Source of the DNA: Bacilli bacterium
GTDB taxonomy: Bacteria; Bacillota_I; Bacilli_A; ML615J-28; CAG-698
Direction of reading: 5' to 3'
DNA length: 44,891 nucleotides
Assembly (NCBI GenBank): GCA_035377365.1
Contig: DAOSSK010000003.1
Location: 1 to 44,891 of the forward strand
The stretch's first letter is position 1, and each line of letters starts with the position of its first letter. Made by a program: the position numbers and the translations under genes. Shown in pieces: positions 12,793 through 41,295 of the stretch. Below the pieces are notes generated by a model. It searched no databases and was not told the origin of the DNA. It was given only the letters and a program-made list of their open reading frames with translations.

Positions 12793-13749
12793 TTAAATCT
12801 TTTTATCGTAAGTTGTATAACTCTTCCAAACCTCAAATCCTAAACGATTATAAACGTCTAAAAGGCCTGTCCAATCAATTAAAAGTTCTGTGCATCCACG
12901 ATCATGTAAGTCTTTAATTGCAATTTTCAATAAATTACTACCGATTTTTTGTCTCCTATGGTCACTATCAACACCTAAAGGTCCAAGTGCACCTAGATTA
13001 TTGAACTTTTGATACCAAGTAATATGATAAGGGAATACTGGAACTTTTGTATCACTTAACCTTACAAAACCAACAACTTGATCTTTATCTAAGCAAATTA
13101 TATAATCCTTACCAAATATTCCTGTCTCATAATAATCTTGGAATTCAAATTCCCATCTTCCAGGAAAACATTTCTCAAAAAATGCTTTAGTAGCTTTATA
13201 ATCCTTTTTCTCAAAATAACGATATTGATATTTTTCCATATTCTCAAAATGTTCAATTACATCTTTTTGGTAATGGTAGCATACCATATCATGAGTAGGC
13301 CCTAAATTGTTATAACCAATTTTTTCTAAAAAGTTTGTTGTTAGATGATTGAAATCAACCGGAACTCCTGGAAAGAAATTATTAATATCTTTTCCAATCC
13401 AAATAGTCTTTTTACCCAATTTCTTAAAACCAGCTTCTACTTTTTCAAAAAGAGTAGTGGCAATTTTTTGCTTACGACATTTTCTCTTTACATAAAACAA
13501 ACTAATAAAGCCAATATCGTGATATCTTTTAATCATATCATTCATAAACTCTTTAGAAATAATAAAACCAACAACTTCATCTCCTTCTAATGCTACAAAA
13601 GAATTCTCTTTAAGAACATATTTGTTCTCAGTAACATTTTGTTTGAAAATAAAATCAGAAATAGGATACATTCCAAGTAAATCATCATTCCATAATTCTT
13701 GGATTAAATGGTAATCTTTAAATTGTTTAAAATTTTTATACTCTATCAT
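12793..13749 (-). CDS. Tandem-GNAT N-acetyltransferase (GlmA-like glucosamine/glucosaminide N-acetyltransferase is a candidate)
   Basis: It contains two acetyl-CoA-binding-type segments (RKCRKQKIATTLF and HRRQKIGSNLL) in a 318-aa protein. It overlaps the GH3-NagB gene by 4 nt. Confidence 0.6.
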   Translation of the reverse strand: MIEYKNFKQFKDYHLIQELWNDDLLGMYPISDFIFKQNVTENKYVLKENSFVALEGDEVVGFIISKEFMNDMIKRYHDIGFISLFYVKRKCRKQKIATTLFEKVEAGFKKLGKKTIWIGKDINNFFPGVPVDFNHLTTNFLEKIGYNNLGPTHDMVCYHYQKDVIEHFENMEKYQYRYFEKKDYKATKAFFEKCFPGRWEFEFQDYYETGIFGKDYIICLDKDQVVGFVRLSDTKVPVFPYHITWYQKFNNLGALGPLGVDSDHRRQKIGSNLLKIAIKDLHDRGCTELLIDWTGLLDVYNRLGFEVWKSYTTYDKKI

Positions 13750-32067: not shown

Positions 32068-32331
32068 CTAATATTTCTTTAATATATCATGATGTCCAAT
32101 ATCAATAAGGACAATTAATTCATCTCCTTCAAAATACCAAATAATTCTTATATCCATATTAATACTGCTTTCATACAAATCTTCTTGTCCTCGAAGTTTT
32201 TTAGTTCTAAACGAAGGGTGTAGTATGTCTTCAACAAACAATCTCATTTTTTTATAAAATAGCGATTGTTCTTTTTTGGTTAAGTCATTAAAAGCTTTTT
32301 CAAAATTTTCAGTTAATAATAGTTTATACAC
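32068..32331 (-). CDS. RelE/StbE-superfamily type II toxin (mRNA interferase)
   Basis: It is 87 aa. The C-terminal pattern INMDIRIIWYFEGDELIVLIDIGHHDILKKY resembles RelE/ParE-fold toxins. It overlaps the upstream antitoxin gene by 8 nt. Confidence 0.65.
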   Translation of the reverse strand: MYKLLLTENFEKAFNDLTKKEQSLFYKKMRLFVEDILHPSFRTKKLRGQEDLYESSINMDIRIIWYFEGDELIVLIDIGHHDILKKY

Positions 32332-32593
32332 TTTTATCCCTTTGTTTTAAATACTTTATTAAATCCTCAACATTATCAAATGCTTTGTCTTTATAGTTTG
32401 AATCCTCTTTAAGTAGCCTAATTTCTTTCGCTAACTTATTGATATATTCCTTAGGATAAACAGCAACTGGTTCAAGCATTATAATTCCATTTTTTACAGA
32501 TATTTCAAACTTATCACCTTCATATAAATTTAGTTGATCTACAATTTTCTTTGGCAGTGTAATCTGCGCTTTTTTTCTTAATTCAACAACCAT
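32324..32593 (-). CDS. AbrB/MazE/SpoVT-family antitoxin
   Basis: The N-terminal swapped-hairpin motif is ELRKKAQITLPKKIVDQLNLYEGDKFEISVKNGIIMLEPV. It is 89 aa with a strong RBS (AAGGAGG). Confidence 0.75.
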   Translation of the reverse strand: MVVELRKKAQITLPKKIVDQLNLYEGDKFEISVKNGIIMLEPVAVYPKEYINKLAKEIRLLKEDSNYKDKAFDNVEDLIKYLKQRDKSV

Positions 32594-32668: not shown

Positions 32669-32682
32669 CAATTATTTAAAAT

Positions 32683-32709
32683 AAAAAGAGCATTTTATGC
32701 TCTTTTTAA
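32683..32709 (-). terminator. Hairpin terminator, copy 2 of the identical 27-nt element (overlaps the stop codon of the GHL10 gene)
   Basis: The sequence AAAAAGAGCATTTTATGCTCTTTTTAA is identical to 31997-32023. The TAA stop of the 32706-33989 gene lies in the 3' part of the element. Confidence 0.75.
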
Positions 32710-33989
32710 ATACTTTTTACTTCTTTTGTCCATAGACTTTTAATTGACTTTTGAGCCTCAGGATATTTGTCTACTGTATCAATTAAGTTGTGATAAGTGA
32801 AGAAAATTTCCCCAGAAACATAATCTAAAGTGCTGTTAAATAACAATTGATTTTTGATTTCATCTGGATTTGCCCATTGATTAGTACCACCCATACGATA
32901 TAAACCCATACCAATATAAAGTTTAGTTTTTGTTTTTTTAGAGGCTTCATTCCACCACTTGGCTAGATCAGCATACTTAACAATTTCTTTTTCACTGCCA
33001 TCTTCTAAAACTTTATAGTAATCTAAATTGAAATAATCTTGAGGAACTACATAGTCAATATAACCTTTTTCCATCCAATAATAGATATCTGCGTATAAGC
33101 CTTCATAACAATTGAAACAAGATTCATCATTGTTTGAACCATATTCCCAAGCACTTTCTTTAGAAGAATATTTAGTATTAGTTCTATAAATACCAAAAGG
33201 GCTAATACCAAATTCAACTTTGCGATCTAATGTATCTAACTTTTCTTTCATCATCTTAATCAAACAAGTTACATTGTATCTTCTAAAATCAGATTTGTTT
33301 TTAATACCAACTTGGTATTGTTTCTTCTCTTCATTAGGATCTACATATTCTTCATAAGGATAGAAATAATCATCCATATGAATAGCTTTAACATCATATT
33401 TCTTAGCAATTTCTAAAGCTGTATCACTTACAAACTCTTGGACTTTTTTTGATGCTGGATCTAAAATTAAAGCTTTACGGCTAGTTTCCATAACTAAATC
33501 TGGGTTTTGCTTAGCAAAACTTTTATCAGGAAGCGAAGCTAAAAATTCTTCTTTGGTCATTTCTAACTTATCCAAAGTAACTTGACTAACACGATATGGA
33601 TTAAGCCAAGCATGAACTTCAATTCCTGCCTTTTTAGCTTTCTCTACAAAATAACCAAAGACATCAAAACCAGGATATTTTCCTTGCTCACCAGTAATAT
33701 AAGCACTCCAAGGATTTAACTCTGATTCATAGAAAGCATCATTAGTAGGTCTTACTTGAAAGATAACTGCATTCATTTTATATTCTTTTACTGTTTTAAT
33801 AATATCATCTAAATGCTTTTTATAGCTTGCTACATCTTTCATTTTTGGCAAATCAATATTAGCTACAGTTGATACCCAAACTCCCCTTAAAGCATCTTTT
33901 TCTTCTATTTTTTCAGGAATCAATACTGGTATATCACTTCTAAAATAAGTAACATATCCTTCTTTTAAATCTCTTTTTATTTTTTTCAT
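32706..33989 (-). CDS. Glycosyl-hydrolase-like family 10 (GHL10/DUF187, YngK-like) protein, cytoplasmic
   Basis: LRGVWVSTVANIDLP...MNAVIFQVRPTNDAFYESELNPWSAYITG...GIEVHAWLNPYRV matches the GHL10 pattern. No signal peptide is present. Confidence 0.65.
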   Translation of the reverse strand: MKKIKRDLKEGYVTYFRSDIPVLIPEKIEEKDALRGVWVSTVANIDLPKMKDVASYKKHLDDIIKTVKEYKMNAVIFQVRPTNDAFYESELNPWSAYITGEQGKYPGFDVFGYFVEKAKKAGIEVHAWLNPYRVSQVTLDKLEMTKEEFLASLPDKSFAKQNPDLVMETSRKALILDPASKKVQEFVSDTALEIAKKYDVKAIHMDDYFYPYEEYVDPNEEKKQYQVGIKNKSDFRRYNVTCLIKMMKEKLDTLDRKVEFGISPFGIYRTNTKYSSKESAWEYGSNNDESCFNCYEGLYADIYYWMEKGYIDYVVPQDYFNLDYYKVLEDGSEKEIVKYADLAKWWNEASKKTKTKLYIGMGLYRMGGTNQWANPDEIKNQLLFNSTLDYVSGEIFFTYHNLIDTVDKYPEAQKSIKSLWTKEVKSI

Positions 33990-34981
33990 TTAAAATCCTT
34001 TCTCATAATTGCGAAAGACTTTACAATCCTCATCCCTGCATATAAATAAATATTGCGCGCTTTATTATCACTACCAGTAAATAGAGTCATAAACTTAGCC
34101 CCATTTTCTTTTGACCTCAAACATAGTTCACAAAACATTGTTTTACCCAAACCTCTTGCTCTAACTTTCGAATGAATTCCTACTCCCGATAGATAGCCTC
34201 TTCCTGAAGGTTCAGTAAAAATTGGGCCAGTAAAACCTAAAGCACAATGATCTTTCTTTACAACCAATAATTTATTTAAATTGCCAAGTTTTCTTTGTCT
34301 TTCAATTTCTTCAAACCATGTAGGACTATTTAAATCTTCAAATAATTCTTTTAAACCATGGTCTTTTTCTGGATCAAAGAAATCAATAAAATAACCATCT
34401 TTTTCATTTTCCTTTTTCTTATCAACCACATACTCTGGTAACTCATAATTTTCAAGTTCTAAATGAAAAGCATCTAGTTGTCCATTTGTATTGTATCCAT
34501 AGCTTAGAAGTAGGAAATAATAAGCTGAATTAAACTCAACTGCAGGCGCTCCTGGATGATTATGTTTATCATATCCAGGAACATACCACTCAAGATTTGT
34601 TGGGTTTCCAAAGTAACAACGAACAAAAGTTTTGCCATTATCCTTTAAATATTGTTCTAATTTTTCCAAAATTTGTGTTCCATATCCTTGTCTTTGATAC
34701 TTTTTCTTCACCACTACAAACGTAATAAAACCAGGACTTTCTGGATTTTGATTAGTAAAATTAGCTTGTCCAGCCCCAATTAACTCATTTCCTTTGTATA
34801 ATAAAACTAAACTTTCATCTTTAAAATGTGGATTATTTAAGAATTTATTTGTAAATAATTCTTCAGTCCAAGGCTTAAAAATCCCATTTTCTCCTGTTGC
34901 ATTTTCATTCCAAAGCTTTATTAAAGCTGGCAATTGATCTTTAGAAAACTGTTTAAACTTCATCTTTACATCCTTTCCCAA
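33986..34981 (-). CDS. Tandem-GNAT N-acetyltransferase (second copy of this architecture in the window)
   Basis: It contains two GNAT-type segments (KKYQRQGYGTQILEKL and VRARGLGKTMFCEL) and is 331 aa. Confidence 0.6.
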   Translation of the reverse strand: MGKDVKMKFKQFSKDQLPALIKLWNENATGENGIFKPWTEELFTNKFLNNPHFKDESLVLLYKGNELIGAGQANFTNQNPESPGFITFVVVKKKYQRQGYGTQILEKLEQYLKDNGKTFVRCYFGNPTNLEWYVPGYDKHNHPGAPAVEFNSAYYFLLLSYGYNTNGQLDAFHLELENYELPEYVVDKKKENEKDGYFIDFFDPEKDHGLKELFEDLNSPTWFEEIERQRKLGNLNKLLVVKKDHCALGFTGPIFTEPSGRGYLSGVGIHSKVRARGLGKTMFCELCLRSKENGAKFMTLFTGSDNKARNIYLYAGMRIVKSFAIMRKDFK

Positions 34982-36050
34982 AATGACTTATAACGTAATT
35001 TCCGATTCTTCCTCTCCATCCAATAATCTTATTATTCTCTCTAGTTGGATGAACTCTATTACTTAATACACAAAATGCGACTTGATTATACCTATCAATA
35101 AATAAATGTGTCCCAGTAAAGCCAGTATGCATAATTGTTTTCGAACTTGCAAGGCATCCAGATTGAGGATAAGAGCCCATAATCGTCCATCCAACTGACC
35201 TTTTTTCTGTAATTACACTTGTCTCATTTTCTTTTTGACTAGCAAGTTCAGTAAACATTAAGTCGATTGTAGCTTTAGACAAAATTCTCTTTCCTTTGTA
35301 AACACCATCATTTAAAACCATTTCCATAAAATGTGATACATCTTTCACGCAAGAAAATAGCCCAGCATGGCCACAAGCACCGCCTAAAAGATAAGCTTTC
35401 TCATCATGAACTTTGCCTCTAACAACTCCCTCGCAAATACGATCTGTTCTTGTTTCAGTTGGGGCTATTGTTTTATAAAGATCTGGACTTAAATTATAAC
35501 CTGTGCGATACATTTCTAACGGTTCAAAAAGATACTTAAAAGTAAATTCAGGCAAACTTAAACCACTAATCTTCTCAATAATCCAGCCTAAATAAATAAA
35601 ACCTAAATCAGAATAAATGATTTTCTCACCTATTACATTACTTGGTTCTAATTCATAAATTGCCTTTACAAACTGTTCTTTTGGTTTTCCTATATATTCT
35701 GTATAACTAATTCCCGGTTTTAATCCTGCTGTATGGGTAATTAAATCAAAAACTGTTGTTTTAGGGTTTTTGAAATCAGGCAATATTTGCTTTACATTGT
35801 CATACAATCTTAATTTTCCTTGTTCCATCAAAATTAAAATTGATGTAACAGTTGCAATAACTTTAGTAAGGGAAGCCATATCGTAAATAGTATCAATATC
35901 ATTTTCTTCCTTTTTAGGAATTAATGCTTTAAACCCAAAAGAATTAAAATGTTTATTGCCATTTTCAATCAAACAATAATTACAACCAGGAAAAACCCCA
36001 TCTTTTAACGCTTGTTCCATTAAAGAATCTAAATATTTAATCTTCGCCAT
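34953..36050 (-). CDS. Beta-lactamase-fold serine hydrolase (AmiE/YbbE-like MurNAc-L-Ala amidase is a candidate)
   Basis: The SxxK motif MASLTKVIATV sits near the N-terminus. It is 365 aa with no signal peptide. B. subtilis AmiE belongs to this fold family. Confidence 0.6.
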   Translation of the reverse strand: MAKIKYLDSLMEQALKDGVFPGCNYCLIENGNKHFNSFGFKALIPKKEENDIDTIYDMASLTKVIATVTSILILMEQGKLRLYDNVKQILPDFKNPKTTVFDLITHTAGLKPGISYTEYIGKPKEQFVKAIYELEPSNVIGEKIIYSDLGFIYLGWIIEKISGLSLPEFTFKYLFEPLEMYRTGYNLSPDLYKTIAPTETRTDRICEGVVRGKVHDEKAYLLGGACGHAGLFSCVKDVSHFMEMVLNDGVYKGKRILSKATIDLMFTELASQKENETSVITEKRSVGWTIMGSYPQSGCLASSKTIMHTGFTGTHLFIDRYNQVAFCVLSNRVHPTRENNKIIGWRGRIGNYVISHFGKGCKDEV

Positions 36051-36937
36051 TATTTAATCCTTTTATACAGTTTATCACTATAACGATTACAGAAATTATC
36101 CCAAGCAACTTTCTTAATTTCTTCTTTACTATAACCTCTTTTTTTCATTCCTTCTATAATTAAATGAGCTTTTGTTGCATCGGGAACTTCTTTAATCATT
36201 GCATTTTCAAAATCATCATCTAAATAATCCATAAAGTCAAAACCAAAACAAACATTATCAATTCCCATTACTTCAATTGCAAAGTCTAAATGATCTAAGA
36301 AATGTTCTAAATCTCTTTCTTCTTCTTTTCTGCTTACAAAACCTTTCGCAAGTGTTAAGCCAAATAATCCATCAGCTTTCTTTAAAGCAAGCATTTGCTC
36401 TTTGTCTAAGTTTCTTCTATGATCACAAATATCATAAACTAAACCGTGAGAATAAACAATATTGTGATTAGTATATTCTAAAACATCATAAAAACTTTTC
36501 TTGTTTAAATGAGCAACATCGATAATCATATCAAGCCCAATCATTATATCTAAAAGTTTTTTACCTTCTTCTTTTAACCCAGATTCTTTTGGACCACTAA
36601 CACCAGTTGCATATTTGTTTTCTTCATTCCAAGTAAGCATCGCATGCCTAAAACCTAAATTATAGAAATAACGAATATCTTCTGGCTTCTCTAAATTCCT
36701 TAATCCTTCAAAACCTAAAATAACTTTAAAATCTTTTAGTTCATTCCAGTCAATTTTCTTTAAAGCACAATTTACTGCTTCTTTTAAATCAAAGTCATCT
36801 GGTGAATATAAAGTCCAAACTGCACCTTTAATAACAGAATTATTATATTGCTTTACATGAATATCTTTAAATCTGTTATCGCCTTTTCCTCTAAAAAGGT
36901 CATATAATAAATCACTATGAATATCAAATACTTTCAT
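36050..36937 (-). CDS. Peptidase M19 (renal-dipeptidase-like) dipeptidase
   Basis: The N-terminus is VFDIHSDLLYDL. The pattern IIDVAHLNKKSFYDVL...VYSHGLVYDICDHRRNLDKEQMLAL matches the M19 consensus. Confidence 0.8.
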   Translation of the reverse strand: MKVFDIHSDLLYDLFRGKGDNRFKDIHVKQYNNSVIKGAVWTLYSPDDFDLKEAVNCALKKIDWNELKDFKVILGFEGLRNLEKPEDIRYFYNLGFRHAMLTWNEENKYATGVSGPKESGLKEEGKKLLDIMIGLDMIIDVAHLNKKSFYDVLEYTNHNIVYSHGLVYDICDHRRNLDKEQMLALKKADGLFGLTLAKGFVSRKEEERDLEHFLDHLDFAIEVMGIDNVCFGFDFMDYLDDDFENAMIKEVPDATKAHLIIEGMKKRGYSKEEIKKVAWDNFCNRYSDKLYKRIK

Positions 36938-38211
36938 TATTTCTCTCCTTTAAAATTAAACACAGCTAAATAGTCATCAACTGTTTCTCTTCTTATTGCT
37001 TCTTTAACGCCTTTTTCACTTACAAACAAAACTGGTGGTCTTAATGCTCCATTATAATTAGAACTCATCGCATAACAATAAGCACCAGTTGTATATGTTA
37101 CTATATAATCATTTTCTTTAAGTTTGCTTAAAATGATATCTTTACCTAAAATATCTCCTGACTCACAAAACTTCCCTACAACTTGATACTTTTCTTTATT
37201 CTCACTTATTACATTATTAACACAATCAAAACTATACTTAGCATCATATAAAGCAGGCCTAATATTATCAGCCATACCGCCATCAACTAAACAATAGTTA
37301 TAGTATTTACTTTGTTTCAGTTTCAAACATTGGTAAATAGTAACACCTTCTCTACCTACAATACTTCTTCCCGGTTCAATTGCAACTATTTCAAAATCAG
37401 TTTTTTCTAATCTTTTAACGATCTTTTTTAGTCCTTCCTTTAAAGAAAACTCGCTATCAGATTCTAAATACTTAACTCCAAAGCCTCCACCTAAATCAAA
37501 AGCTTTGATTTTATATTTTAACTTCTTCTCTAATTTTGTTTTAAAATCAGAAATTTTATCAATTGCTTCTAAATAAGGATCTAATTCTTTAATTTGTGAG
37601 CCTAAATGAACTTGAAGCCCTTTTAAAACTACATGCTTAGCATTATTATAAAACTCAATTATTTTATCCCAAATATCATCATCAATACCTTCTCCAAACT
37701 TAGAATCTAAATTTGCAGTTTGAATATGTTTATGGCTATCTACCTTAACATAAGGATTTATTCTAAAGTAGGTATCTACTTTTGATTTTGCTAGCTTTTC
37801 AATCAATGTTAATTCGGAAAACGAATCTACAATAAAAGCATTAATCTTTAATTTTAAAGCTAATTTTAGTTCTTCTTCAGTCTTATTATTTCCTTGAAAG
37901 AAGACTCTTTCCATTGGAAAACCTACTTTTTCTAATAACCTAAAATCACTTACACTAGTTGCATCTACACATAAACCTTCTTCATTTAAGATATTGGCAA
38001 AATAAGGAGCTATAAAAGCTTTTGATGCATAAATGATTTTAGTCTTTAGTTTTTTAGAACTAAAACTATCTTTAATTAGTTTGATTCTCGTTTTAATCCC
38101 TTCTTCATCATAAACCATTAAAGGGGTTTTATACTTCATAGCTAACTCTTTTAAAGAATGATTACCTATATATAATTCATTGTTTTGAATATTTGTATTA
38201 ACTGTTTTCAT
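36937..38211 (-). CDS. lysA: Diaminopimelate decarboxylase
   Basis: It shows fold-III PLP decarboxylase motifs: YASKAF (PLP lysine region), DLGGGFGVKY and GKFCESGD. It is 424 aa. Confidence 0.75.
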   Translation of the reverse strand: MKTVNTNIQNNELYIGNHSLKELAMKYKTPLMVYDEEGIKTRIKLIKDSFSSKKLKTKIIYASKAFIAPYFANILNEEGLCVDATSVSDFRLLEKVGFPMERVFFQGNNKTEEELKLALKLKINAFIVDSFSELTLIEKLAKSKVDTYFRINPYVKVDSHKHIQTANLDSKFGEGIDDDIWDKIIEFYNNAKHVVLKGLQVHLGSQIKELDPYLEAIDKISDFKTKLEKKLKYKIKAFDLGGGFGVKYLESDSEFSLKEGLKKIVKRLEKTDFEIVAIEPGRSIVGREGVTIYQCLKLKQSKYYNYCLVDGGMADNIRPALYDAKYSFDCVNNVISENKEKYQVVGKFCESGDILGKDIILSKLKENDYIVTYTTGAYCYAMSSNYNGALRPPVLFVSEKGVKEAIRRETVDDYLAVFNFKGEK

Positions 38212-39175
38212 ACTTTACTTCCATTTCTTTGAATAAATCATTCATTTCTTGTTCTTTAGTAATTTTCATTAATCTTAATTTATATTCTTTAACATCCAAC
38301 CCTTTGAGATAACGAGAAAATAAAGACCTTAAATTAAGAATGGCAAGTTTTTCGCCCATCTCATTCTTTAATAGCTCATAGTGTTTTTTCACCATTTGTA
38401 TTCTTTCAATATCTGTTGGCTCTGATAACTCTTTACCTTCAAAATGATTAACAATATTTTGAATTAACCAGGGATTGCCAATACTGCTTCTGCCTATCAT
38501 AATCGCATCACATTTAGTGTAATCTAAAACATACTCAGCATCTTCAATTGATTTAATATCGCCATTAGCAATTACTGGTATTTTCACTTGTTCTTTGACT
38601 AGCTTAATATAATCATAATTAGCTTTGCCTTTATACAAATCACTTTGTGTTCTCCCATGAATACAAATAGCTGAAGCACCTGCTTTTTCAATTTTCTTTG
38701 CAACTTCAAGTACATTAATTGTATTTTTAGTTTGACCAAGTCTAATCTTAACTGTAACTGGTTTAGATACATTCTCTACAACTGCCTTCACAATCTCATA
38801 AATATTATCAGGATCTTTAAGTAAATAACTTCCTGATTTAGCCTTTAAAACTTTCTTTACAGGACAGCCCATATTTAAATCTATAATATCACAATCACTA
38901 TATTTATCTATGTAAATTGCTGCTTTAACTAAATCTTCTTTTGTTCCACCAAATAATTGCATATTTACTAAATGATCATCTTCTTCTACTTTAGTCATCT
39001 CTAAAGTTCTTTTGTTTTTAAAGTTGATACCTTTAGCACTAATCATTTCTGTATAGCAAAGACTAGCACCAAATTCTCTCATAATTTTGCGATAAGAATA
39101 ATTAGTGTATCCCGCTAAAGGAGCGATAATTACTTTGTTTTTAAGTTCAAATTTACCAATTTTCAAAATTATCAA
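38198..39175 (-). CDS. dusB: tRNA-dihydrouridine synthase
   Basis: APLAGYTN, NMGCP and the overall Dus pattern are present. The AGGAG RBS at 39176-39180 fits the in-frame TTG at 39166 (MKIGKFELKN) better than the start at 39175. Confidence 0.85.
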   Translation of the reverse strand: MIILKIGKFELKNKVIIAPLAGYTNYSYRKIMREFGASLCYTEMISAKGINFKNKRTLEMTKVEEDDHLVNMQLFGGTKEDLVKAAIYIDKYSDCDIIDLNMGCPVKKVLKAKSGSYLLKDPDNIYEIVKAVVENVSKPVTVKIRLGQTKNTINVLEVAKKIEKAGASAICIHGRTQSDLYKGKANYDYIKLVKEQVKIPVIANGDIKSIEDAEYVLDYTKCDAIMIGRSSIGNPWLIQNIVNHFEGKELSEPTDIERIQMVKKHYELLKNEMGEKLAILNLRSLFSRYLKGLDVKEYKLRLMKITKEQEMNDLFKEMEVKYENS

Positions 39176-39183
39176 CTCCTTTT

Positions 39184-39303
39184 AAAAAAGATCTTACTCT
39201 AAGTGCCTACACCCACATACCTACATAAGCTTAAGGCTGCTTCAGTCACGACCTGACCTGGTTCACTTCAAGATATTGGGTATAGGGACTTAAAATAAGA
39301 TCC
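39184..39303 (-). ncRNA. ffs: Signal recognition particle RNA, short 4.5S type
   Basis: The minus strand reads GGATCTTATTTTAAGTCCCTATACCC...GAACCAGGTCAGGTCGTGACTGAAGCAGCCTTAAGC...GGGTGTAGGCACTTAGAGTAAGATC-TTTTTT. It contains the conserved domain IV motif (compare E. coli ACCAGGUCAGGUCCGGAAGGAAGCAGCC). The 5' and 3' ends pair, and a U6 tail follows. Confidence 0.8.
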
Positions 39304-39309
39304 TTTATC

Positions 39310-39338
39310 ATTATAGCATTTTCCCTTCTTCTTTTCAA
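39310..39338 (-). promoter_or_regulatory. Near-consensus promoter for the SRP RNA
   Basis: On the minus strand it reads TTGAAA, a 17-nt spacer, then TATAAT. The predicted start, G at about 39303, coincides with the 5' end of the SRP helix. Confidence 0.6.
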
Positions 39339-41236: not shown

Positions 41237-41295
41237 AACATAGTATAAAACTTACTATGGTTTGCAAATAAAAACCATGGCGGAAGGAGAGAAAA

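Follow-up and report, generated by a model that had tools for sequence, protein, structure and literature searches.

AmiE of Bacillus subtilis is an amidase with a β-lactamase fold. Its gene forms part of the B. subtilis rescue operon murQ-murR-murP-amiE-nagZ-namZ (PMC8054146, PMC5061867), and NagZ, AmiE, and NamZ make up an exo-lytic set that degrades peptidoglycan sequentially from the nonreducing end (PMC8054146). These three enzymes are secreted, N-acetylmuramic acid (MurNAc) enters the cell through the phosphotransferase system (PTS) transporter MurP, and the wall that is recycled is the bacterium's own; as described in PMC8054146 and PMC5061867, the operon lists neither LysA nor an M19 peptidase. 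The fate of the stem peptide is represented by the Escherichia coli tripeptide route (AmpD, LdcA, MpaA, YcjG, and PepD, then LysA) and by B. subtilis dpp-ykfABCD. Here, we analyzed a 44,891-nucleotide stretch (hereafter the window; positions 1 to 44,891 of contig DAOSSK010000003.1, assembly GCA_035377365.1) from a wall-less Acholeplasmataceae bacterium of anaerobic digesters with a genome of ~1 Mb, in which the genes for a diaminopimelate (DAP) decarboxylase (lysA), an M19 dipeptidase, and a serine hydrolase form a coupled trio. We propose that the trio forms the stem-peptide branch of a pathway that scavenges peptidoglycan in the cytoplasm and salvages lysine from foreign cell walls. We assign this scheme as a whole a probability of roughly 65% and rate its LysA part alone higher.

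The three genes lie on the minus strand in the order lysA (36937–38211, 424 amino acids), M19 (36050–36937, 295 amino acids), and serine hydrolase (34953–36050, 365 amino acids), where the first-pass annotation had placed them from the list of open reading frames (ORFs). The start/stop coupling that it described is borne out by the sequence: both junctions read TAATG, so that base 36937 closes the lysA stop codon and opens the M19 start codon, as base 36050 does between M19 and the hydrolase gene. The overlap of 14 nt that it reported between dusB and lysA was likewise seen, at 38198–38211. A contig of 86% identity (L009) has the same split arrangement of lysA and M19, as do the other two genomes of the genus (G001 and G002), indicating that it is not a sequencing error.

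LysA, predicted to be a cytoplasmic meso-DAP (mDAP) decarboxylase, scored 385 bits against TIGR01048 (equivalog cut-off 297.9; model positions 4–414 of 417) and aligned end to end with solved DAP decarboxylase structures. The motifs YASKAF, HxGSQ, EPGR, RPALY, CESGD, and GAY are all present and invariant in 25 relatives, the pyridoxal phosphate (PLP) lysine is kept, and the invariant residues include Lys-64, His-202, Glu-279 to Arg-282, Arg-318, Cys-349–Glu-350–Ser-351, Asp-353, and Tyr-378. Judged by its sequence, the protein keeps all residues required for meso-DAP and is a genuine predicted DAP decarboxylase.

The rest of the pathway is missing. The genome under study (785,644 bp in 62 contigs, 77.9% complete; the window lies on contig C3) has a single copy of lysA, and searches for DapA, DapB (DapB_N), and DapF found none in this genome or in the two others of the genus, G001 (98% complete, about 1.0 Mb) and G002. 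The Dap searches gave matches in 9–13 of 14 control genomes. The first-pass annotation had considered it unusual that lysA stands inside a catabolic array, away from dap genes and without visible lysine-riboswitch control, and it had named a full dap operon as the finding that would speak for plain biosynthesis. Neither the window (at E ≤ 1) nor the genome yielded a lysine riboswitch (L-box); lysA has no dap neighbors, and no such operon was found in this genome, G001, or G002. Because DapA, DapB, DapF, MurE (see below), and the L-box were not found in the genus, LysA does not appear to serve plain biosynthesis. Lysine is most likely made from the DAP of other bacteria's walls, and, with LysA as the sole enzyme of the lysine pathway, this salvage would be obligatory rather than optional.

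The same pattern extends across the order, where LysA scored above its cut-off in 51 of 61 genomes, DapF in 42 of 61, DapA in 9 of 61, and DapB in 3 of 41; no DapA hit was obtained in 44 of the 51 LysA-positive genomes. These counts bear on ordinary lysine biosynthesis, in which the remaining DAP enzymes would have been missed through incomplete assembly or would be non-orthologous. The modest completeness of the present genome and the retention of DapF in most relatives speak for such an explanation. However, none of the three Dap enzymes was found in the 98%-complete G001 either, most high-quality genomes of the order lack DapA and DapB although the positive controls match, and lysA sits in a catabolic operon that has no L-box. 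We therefore consider plain lysine biosynthesis very unlikely, close to negligible. DapF is also kept in several genomes without MurE. Its retention suggests that LL-DAP is salvaged too and epimerized for LysA, and any walled member of the order that lacks DapA has to take up mDAP or lysine from outside to build its wall.

The host itself has no wall to recycle, which sets it apart from B. subtilis. FolC is the only Mur-ligase-like gene in this genome, and MurE and the penicillin-binding protein (PBP) transpeptidase were found in none of the three genomes of the genus, whereas in the sister family MurE occurs in 23 of the 24 and the transpeptidase in all 9 of the genomes sampled. These data indicate that the organism is wall-less and that the wall it consumes is foreign. 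Proteins at least 90% identical are listed at NCBI under “Acholeplasmataceae bacterium” and “Acholeplasma sp.”; an M19 protein among them is encoded on a contig of 1,059,304 bp. In an RNA stable-isotope probing study with 13C, it was chiefly free-living Acholeplasma that rapidly assimilated the biomass of dead E. coli (PMC4628116), which gives independent ecological support to a scavenging life. Feeding on dead bacterial biomass in digesters is the best explanation for this host, and the locus would provide a concrete genetic mechanism for the assimilation observed in Acholeplasma (PMC4628116). Sludge and digesters contain peptidoglycan as a large pool rich in nitrogen.

The surroundings of the trio are in line with such a diet. 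On the same strand, we found genes for NamZ, a NagZ-MupG fusion, AnmK, a MurQ-like SIS protein, a BadF-type sugar kinase, a GH3-NagB fusion, GH20, and GHL10, as well as two sets of ATP-binding cassette (ABC) importer genes. This array is a peptidoglycan sugar-catabolic island, in which the NagZ, NamZ, MurQ, and AmiE-type genes of the B. subtilis rescue operon all have counterparts. Neither the trio nor the other island enzymes carry a signal peptide or a hydrophobic N terminus; hence, the fragments must be imported and degraded inside the cell, in contrast to the secreted enzymes and PTS uptake of B. subtilis.

The middle gene of the trio encodes a short-form metallodipeptidase of the M19 (renal-dipeptidase) family, predicted to be cytoplasmic. 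It matched Peptidase_M19 (PF01244) with 201.9 bits (gathering score 26; E = 2e-59), the match beginning at position 104, and the N-terminal third aligned poorly to the Pfam model. The metal ligands and the catalytic Asp are invariant (His-7, Asp-9, Glu-105, His-143, His-164, Asp-234, and Asp-237), as is Arg-175, which is taken to be the carboxylate-binding Arg. The nearest relatives of solved structure are Listeria Lmo2462 (PDB entries 3lu2 and 3neh), GliJ, human renal dipeptidase, and Sco3058. Lmo2462, the renal enzyme, and Sco3058 have the same fold and binuclear-metal ligands as the window protein, which differs from them in belonging to a short, cytoplasmic subfamily of ~295 residues. Cummings and colleagues are said to have found in 2010 that Sco3058 prefers L-Xaa-D-Xaa dipeptides. 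A stem tetrapeptide cut at the γ-D-Glu–mDAP bond would give L-Ala-D-Glu and mDAP-D-Ala, both of which are L-D dipeptides and would fit a preference of this type. By analogy, we infer that the window enzyme is a dipeptidase that favors L-Xaa-D-Xaa substrates.

A direct link between M19 and LysA came from related genomes. In contigs with hydrolase homologues, LysA and M19 form one ORF of 727–729 amino acids, and whole-genome searches revealed fused LysA-M19 frames of 730–762 amino acids in 16 genomes from 9 genera of the family; in the remaining 5 genera, that of the window among them, lysA and M19 abut or overlap. The joint connects the C terminus of LysA to the HxD motif of M19 through a short, variable linker of about 5–10 residues; HHU55222.1 is an example of a natural fusion. 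A single full-length LysA-M19 fusion occurs among 1.84 billion cluster representatives, NCBI annotates the fused proteins only as “diaminopimelate decarboxylase,” and none of the characterized M19 enzymes has been reported as a LysA fusion. A metagenomic protein of 757 amino acids (P0236) shows a different union, with Orn/DAP decarboxylase domains followed by two DAP_epimerase domains, that is, LysA fused to DapF. Because LysA also fuses to DapF, the maker of its substrate, M19 is the likely supplier of meso-DAP to LysA, by analogy. In a tree of LysA (36 rows, rooted at the midpoint only), the fused forms are not monophyletic, and the genus of the window, on a long branch, is placed next to a genus with split genes; with this rooting, the tree is compatible with fusion as well as fission and with an ancestral as well as a secondary split. 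The predicted complex of the window's LysA and M19, computed from alignments, scored 0.00, a value that counts neither for nor against an interaction.

The trio is embedded in a block whose order is kept in the family: dusB-lysA-M19-hydrolase-GNAT-(PIG-L)-(S66/LdcA)-GHL10-GH20-binding protein. dusB heads the same block in sister genera; no PIG-L gene was found in the present genome. In the sister family, the block reads hydrolase-(GNAT)-PIG-L-M19-GHL10-GH20-binding protein, and lysA is located elsewhere, except in one genome that has S66 and lysA within the block. Two genomes of the family that lack LysA keep dusB-M19, and one of them retains the rest of the block. Since the block exists without lysA, M19 and the hydrolase are old members of the locus that lysA joined in this family.

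Such blocks without LysA raise the question of whether the three genes are simply neighbors that share no pathway. M19 and the hydrolase would then act on D-amino-acid peptides or amino-sugar glycans, and LysA on imported free DAP or another diamino acid. The M19-hydrolase-GNAT-PIG-L-GHL10-GH20 block of the sister family and of LysA-less genomes favors this explanation, and the GH18, GH20, and PIG-L deacetylase of relatives would suit chitin-type substrates as well. However, the covalent joining of LysA to M19 in 9 genera would be difficult to explain unless the two were functionally linked. Furthermore, LdcA-type S66, AnmK, NamZ, MupG, and MurQ are specific to peptidoglycan, and the DAP-binding residues of LysA are all invariant. 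Taken together, we regard a chance association of the trio as improbable.

The third gene encodes an S12 serine hydrolase (PF00144 Beta-lactamase, E = 6e-49) of the PBP4B/YfeW (AmiE-like) subfamily. The best of 21 NCBIfam models was PBP4B (NF002968), with 156 bits against a cut-off of 385; AmpH scored 56 bits, class C β-lactamases about 50, and esterases 30–44. The protein is thus a relative of PBP4B and not an equivalog. It is 31% identical to E. coli YfeW (E = 2e-41, residues 3–334), and the two proteins share SxxK, YSD (unusual, in place of YxN), VHDEKA, GHAGLFS, and HTGxTGT. Ser-60, Lys-63, Tyr-146, Asp-148, His-215, and Asp-216 are invariant, with the HTG motif at residues 308–310; S60-L-T-K63, Y146-S-D148, and H308-T-G310 are invariant or nearly so in 27 homologues. 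PBP4B of E. coli has an N-terminal targeting segment of ~38 residues, whereas the window protein has no hydrophobic N terminus, and its alignment begins at YfeW residue 39, the first 38 residues being absent. Matches to solved structures were only distant (esterases, Flp, and Pab87; E = 1e-20 or weaker) and are uninformative on specificity, and a Protein Atlas look-up returned generic “beta-lactamase” clusters only.

In E. coli, yfeW lies directly after murQ-murP, and PBP4B is thus, like the window hydrolase, linked genetically to MurNAc catabolism. Of 15 loci from other families in the class, 8 place homologues of the hydrolase (36–49% identity) beside AnmK together with three GHL10 genes. 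L073, L074, L076, and L078–L082, loci from such families, show a recurrent cluster of AnmK, three GHL10 paralogues, a PBP4B-like hydrolase, and a large binding protein; GHL10 (PF02638) looks like a family that processes the glycan of peptidoglycan. The tie of the hydrolase to MurNAc catabolism is well supported. As for its reaction, it may be a MurNAc-L-Ala amidase, by analogy with the NagZ, AmiE, and NamZ set and from the chemistry of the D-lactyl group, which by our own reasoning resembles the D-alanyl acyl donors of S12 enzymes.

In the proposed scheme, muropeptides would be imported by the neighboring ABC systems and trimmed by NagZ, NamZ, and AnmK. The PBP4B/AmiE-like hydrolase would then detach the stem peptide from MurNAc at the D-lactyl group or shorten this peptide at its D-Ala end. 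M19 would split the resulting L-Xaa-D-Xaa dipeptides, L-Ala-D-Glu and/or mDAP-D-Ala, and hand free meso-DAP to LysA, which would turn it into L-lysine that the cell could not otherwise make. The glutamate racemase retained by the genus could return D-Glu to L-Glu. This racemase is kept in the wall-less G001 (TIGR00067, 176 bits; cut-off 147), which fits a catabolic use of D-Glu; no alanine racemase was found in the genus. The logic is that of the E. coli tripeptide route and of dpp-ykfABCD, in that the stem peptide is freed, D-Ala4 is removed by S66 (in relatives), and mDAP is released and converted to lysine. In contrast to these routes, the MpaA-type (M14) and YkfC-type (NlpC/P60) enzymes were not found here, and M19 would take the dipeptide step. 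Compared with the known routes, this one is distinguished by its cytoplasmic location, ABC import, a wall-less host, the M19 enzyme (fused to LysA in relatives), and an apparent loss, across the order, of the ability to make DAP de novo.

A DppA-like M55 D-aminopeptidase (C3:46072–46875, plus strand; PF04951, E = 2e-83) lies 8 kb upstream of the trio and 1.2 kb past the end of the window, a further likeness to dpp-ykfABCD; it is a candidate for removing D-Ala-D-Ala or N-terminal D-residues from stem peptides. The genome also has MR_MLE_C matches on contigs C33 and C14, which would be candidate L-Ala-D/L-Glu epimerases.

Several observations weigh against this scheme. The bit score of the hydrolase falls far below the PBP4B equivalog cut-off, and PBP4B of E. 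coli is reported to be a weak DD-carboxypeptidase rather than an amidase. The enzymes known to cut γ-D-Glu–mDAP, M14 (MpaA-type) and NlpC/P60 (YkfC-type), and an S66 (LdcA) gene were searched for and not found in this 78%-complete genome. The first-pass annotation had foreseen a complete use of muropeptides, including lysine salvage: the coupled trio in a catabolic array and the orphan LysA agree with the salvage, whereas completeness is called into question by the missing γ-D-Glu–mDAP peptidase and LdcA. M19 predates lysA in the locus and may thus not be strictly dedicated to releasing mDAP. In the AlphaFold2 model of the fused protein (mean pLDDT 83.9, pTM 0.58), two good domains are joined by a linker of low confidence (residues 423–431 below 50), and the prediction gives no sign of a fixed interface. 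Finally, the genome encodes four canonical Amidase_2 proteins outside the window (C2:1409–7326 and C1:~44785–46989). Three of them are lipoproteins of 734–835 amino acids that contain Ig-like domains and probably act at the cell surface against foreign walls; the fourth, of 292 amino acids, has no signal peptide. Because a cytoplasmic Amidase_2 is present, the serine hydrolase may not be needed for the MurNAc-L-Ala step.

These amidases allow salvage to hold with the roles distributed differently. The three surface lipoproteins and the cytoplasmic, AmpD-like enzyme would strip the peptides from MurNAc, the hydrolase would be a D-stereospecific peptidase on the free peptide, either a DD-carboxypeptidase or the missing γ-D-Glu–mDAP enzyme, and M19 would finish the dipeptides. 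Beyond the number of such proteins and the one that lacks a signal peptide, this division of labor is favored by the closest curated family of the hydrolase, a penicillin-binding DD-carboxypeptidase, and by the missing M14, NlpC/P60, and S66, whose steps an enzyme of the block must then cover. However, the exo-lytic NagZ, AmiE, and NamZ set of B. subtilis is otherwise complete here (PMC8054146). In addition, the homologues of the hydrolase adjoin AnmK, which requires peptide-free anhydro-MurNAc, and the 292-residue amidase is encoded between two lipoprotein amidase genes, outside the catabolic island. We consider this distribution of roles unlikely, and the salvage scheme as set out above remains our preferred reading. 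The γ-D-Glu–mDAP gap hints at an activity hidden among the double GNAT, GHL10, and the hydrolase.

A broader proposal, which we put forward tentatively and with more doubt than confidence, is that the short M19 of the order is a dedicated mDAP-releasing step, such as a dipeptidase for mDAP-D-Ala or γ-D-Glu–mDAP, that the fused form is a bifunctional enzyme converting a stem-peptide fragment to lysine, and that the whole order is without de novo DAP synthesis. If so, its members, walled ones included, would obtain lysine, and mDAP for their walls where needed, from foreign peptidoglycan, keeping only DapF and LysA to interconvert scavenged compounds. Searches limited to open-access text turned up no earlier account of an Acholeplasma LysA, of lysine salvage from the DAP of foreign walls, or of M19 acting on stem peptides, which is no proof of novelty. 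The locus suggests that a “biosynthetic” lysA, routine in metabolic reconstructions, can be a pure salvage enzyme; automated pathway annotation that credits reduced genomes with partial lysine biosynthesis would then get their auxotrophy wrong. As a Rosetta-stone link, the LysA-M19 fusion, which annotation has overlooked, would point to the class of substrates used by a subfamily of bacterial M19 enzymes and, possibly, by PBP4B/YfeW.

The trio belongs to a tightly coupled unit, (ffs)-dusB-lysA-M19-hydrolase-GNAT-GHL10, on the minus strand. Upstream of the unit and of the signal recognition particle (SRP) RNA gene lies a promoter-like site (39310–39338; TTGAAA-17-TATAAT with an extended −10 TG, 11 of 12 consensus matches), which is a consensus match only, as promoter-like sites in the region are overall no more frequent than in shuffled sequence. 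The gene for the small SRP RNA (ffs, 39197–39292) matched RF00169 over the full model (1–97) with 50.8 bits (gathering score 40; E = 1e-8). Only 21 nt, free of any terminator-like site, separate it from dusB downstream, so that the catabolic operon may be read through from the ffs promoter. dusB (38198–39175), the first protein gene of the unit, encodes a tRNA dihydrouridine synthase (TIGR00737, 351 bits; cut-off 293). The last gene, a GHL10 (PF02638) glycosidase-like gene (32706–33989), was assigned by its Pfam match and its conserved place in the block. Directly after its stop, a hairpin with a 12-bp stem followed by a T run (32682–32708) is the sole strong terminator-like site on this strand of the region.

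The stretch recurs nearly complete in sequencing runs of sludge, anaerobic digesters, and landfills from 15 studies, with 6 metatranscriptome libraries among them. One contig from an RNA library covers 32723–39187, from GHL10 through dusB, and a second, from a different study, covers 34278–38114. Their ends fit the predicted terminator and the ffs/dusB boundary and are consistent with a single transcript spanning dusB-lysA-M19-hydrolase-GNAT-GHL10; as a further reservation about the scheme, contigs from RNA libraries may contain DNA and are no proof of a single transcript. In another such contig (X16), an insertion (+1) and a deletion (−1) lie 6 nt from each other in the hydrolase gene (35429–35435), probably a strain variant that alters two codons.

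Directly after the hydrolase, a double-GNAT acetyltransferase gene (33986–34963, minus strand) was identified by its Pfam match; its position behind the hydrolase is conserved across the order. As read from the sequence, its start is most likely ATG 34963, with a GGAAAGGA box 7 nt upstream, which gives an 11-nt overlap with the hydrolase stop. The island holds a second double-GNAT protein (12793–13749, minus strand). De-N-acetylated amino sugars and D-amino acids are candidate substrates of these proteins.

Between GHL10 and GH20, the window carries a pair encoding a MazE-like antitoxin and a YafQ-like toxin (32068–32593, minus strand). The corresponding gap measures only 114–162 nt in the 86%-identical contig L009 and in G001, indicating that the pair is a strain-specific insertion into the island. 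On the plus strand, an L31-Firmicutes ribosomal leader (RF03156) was detected at 41255–41289 with 34.4 bits, barely above the gathering score.

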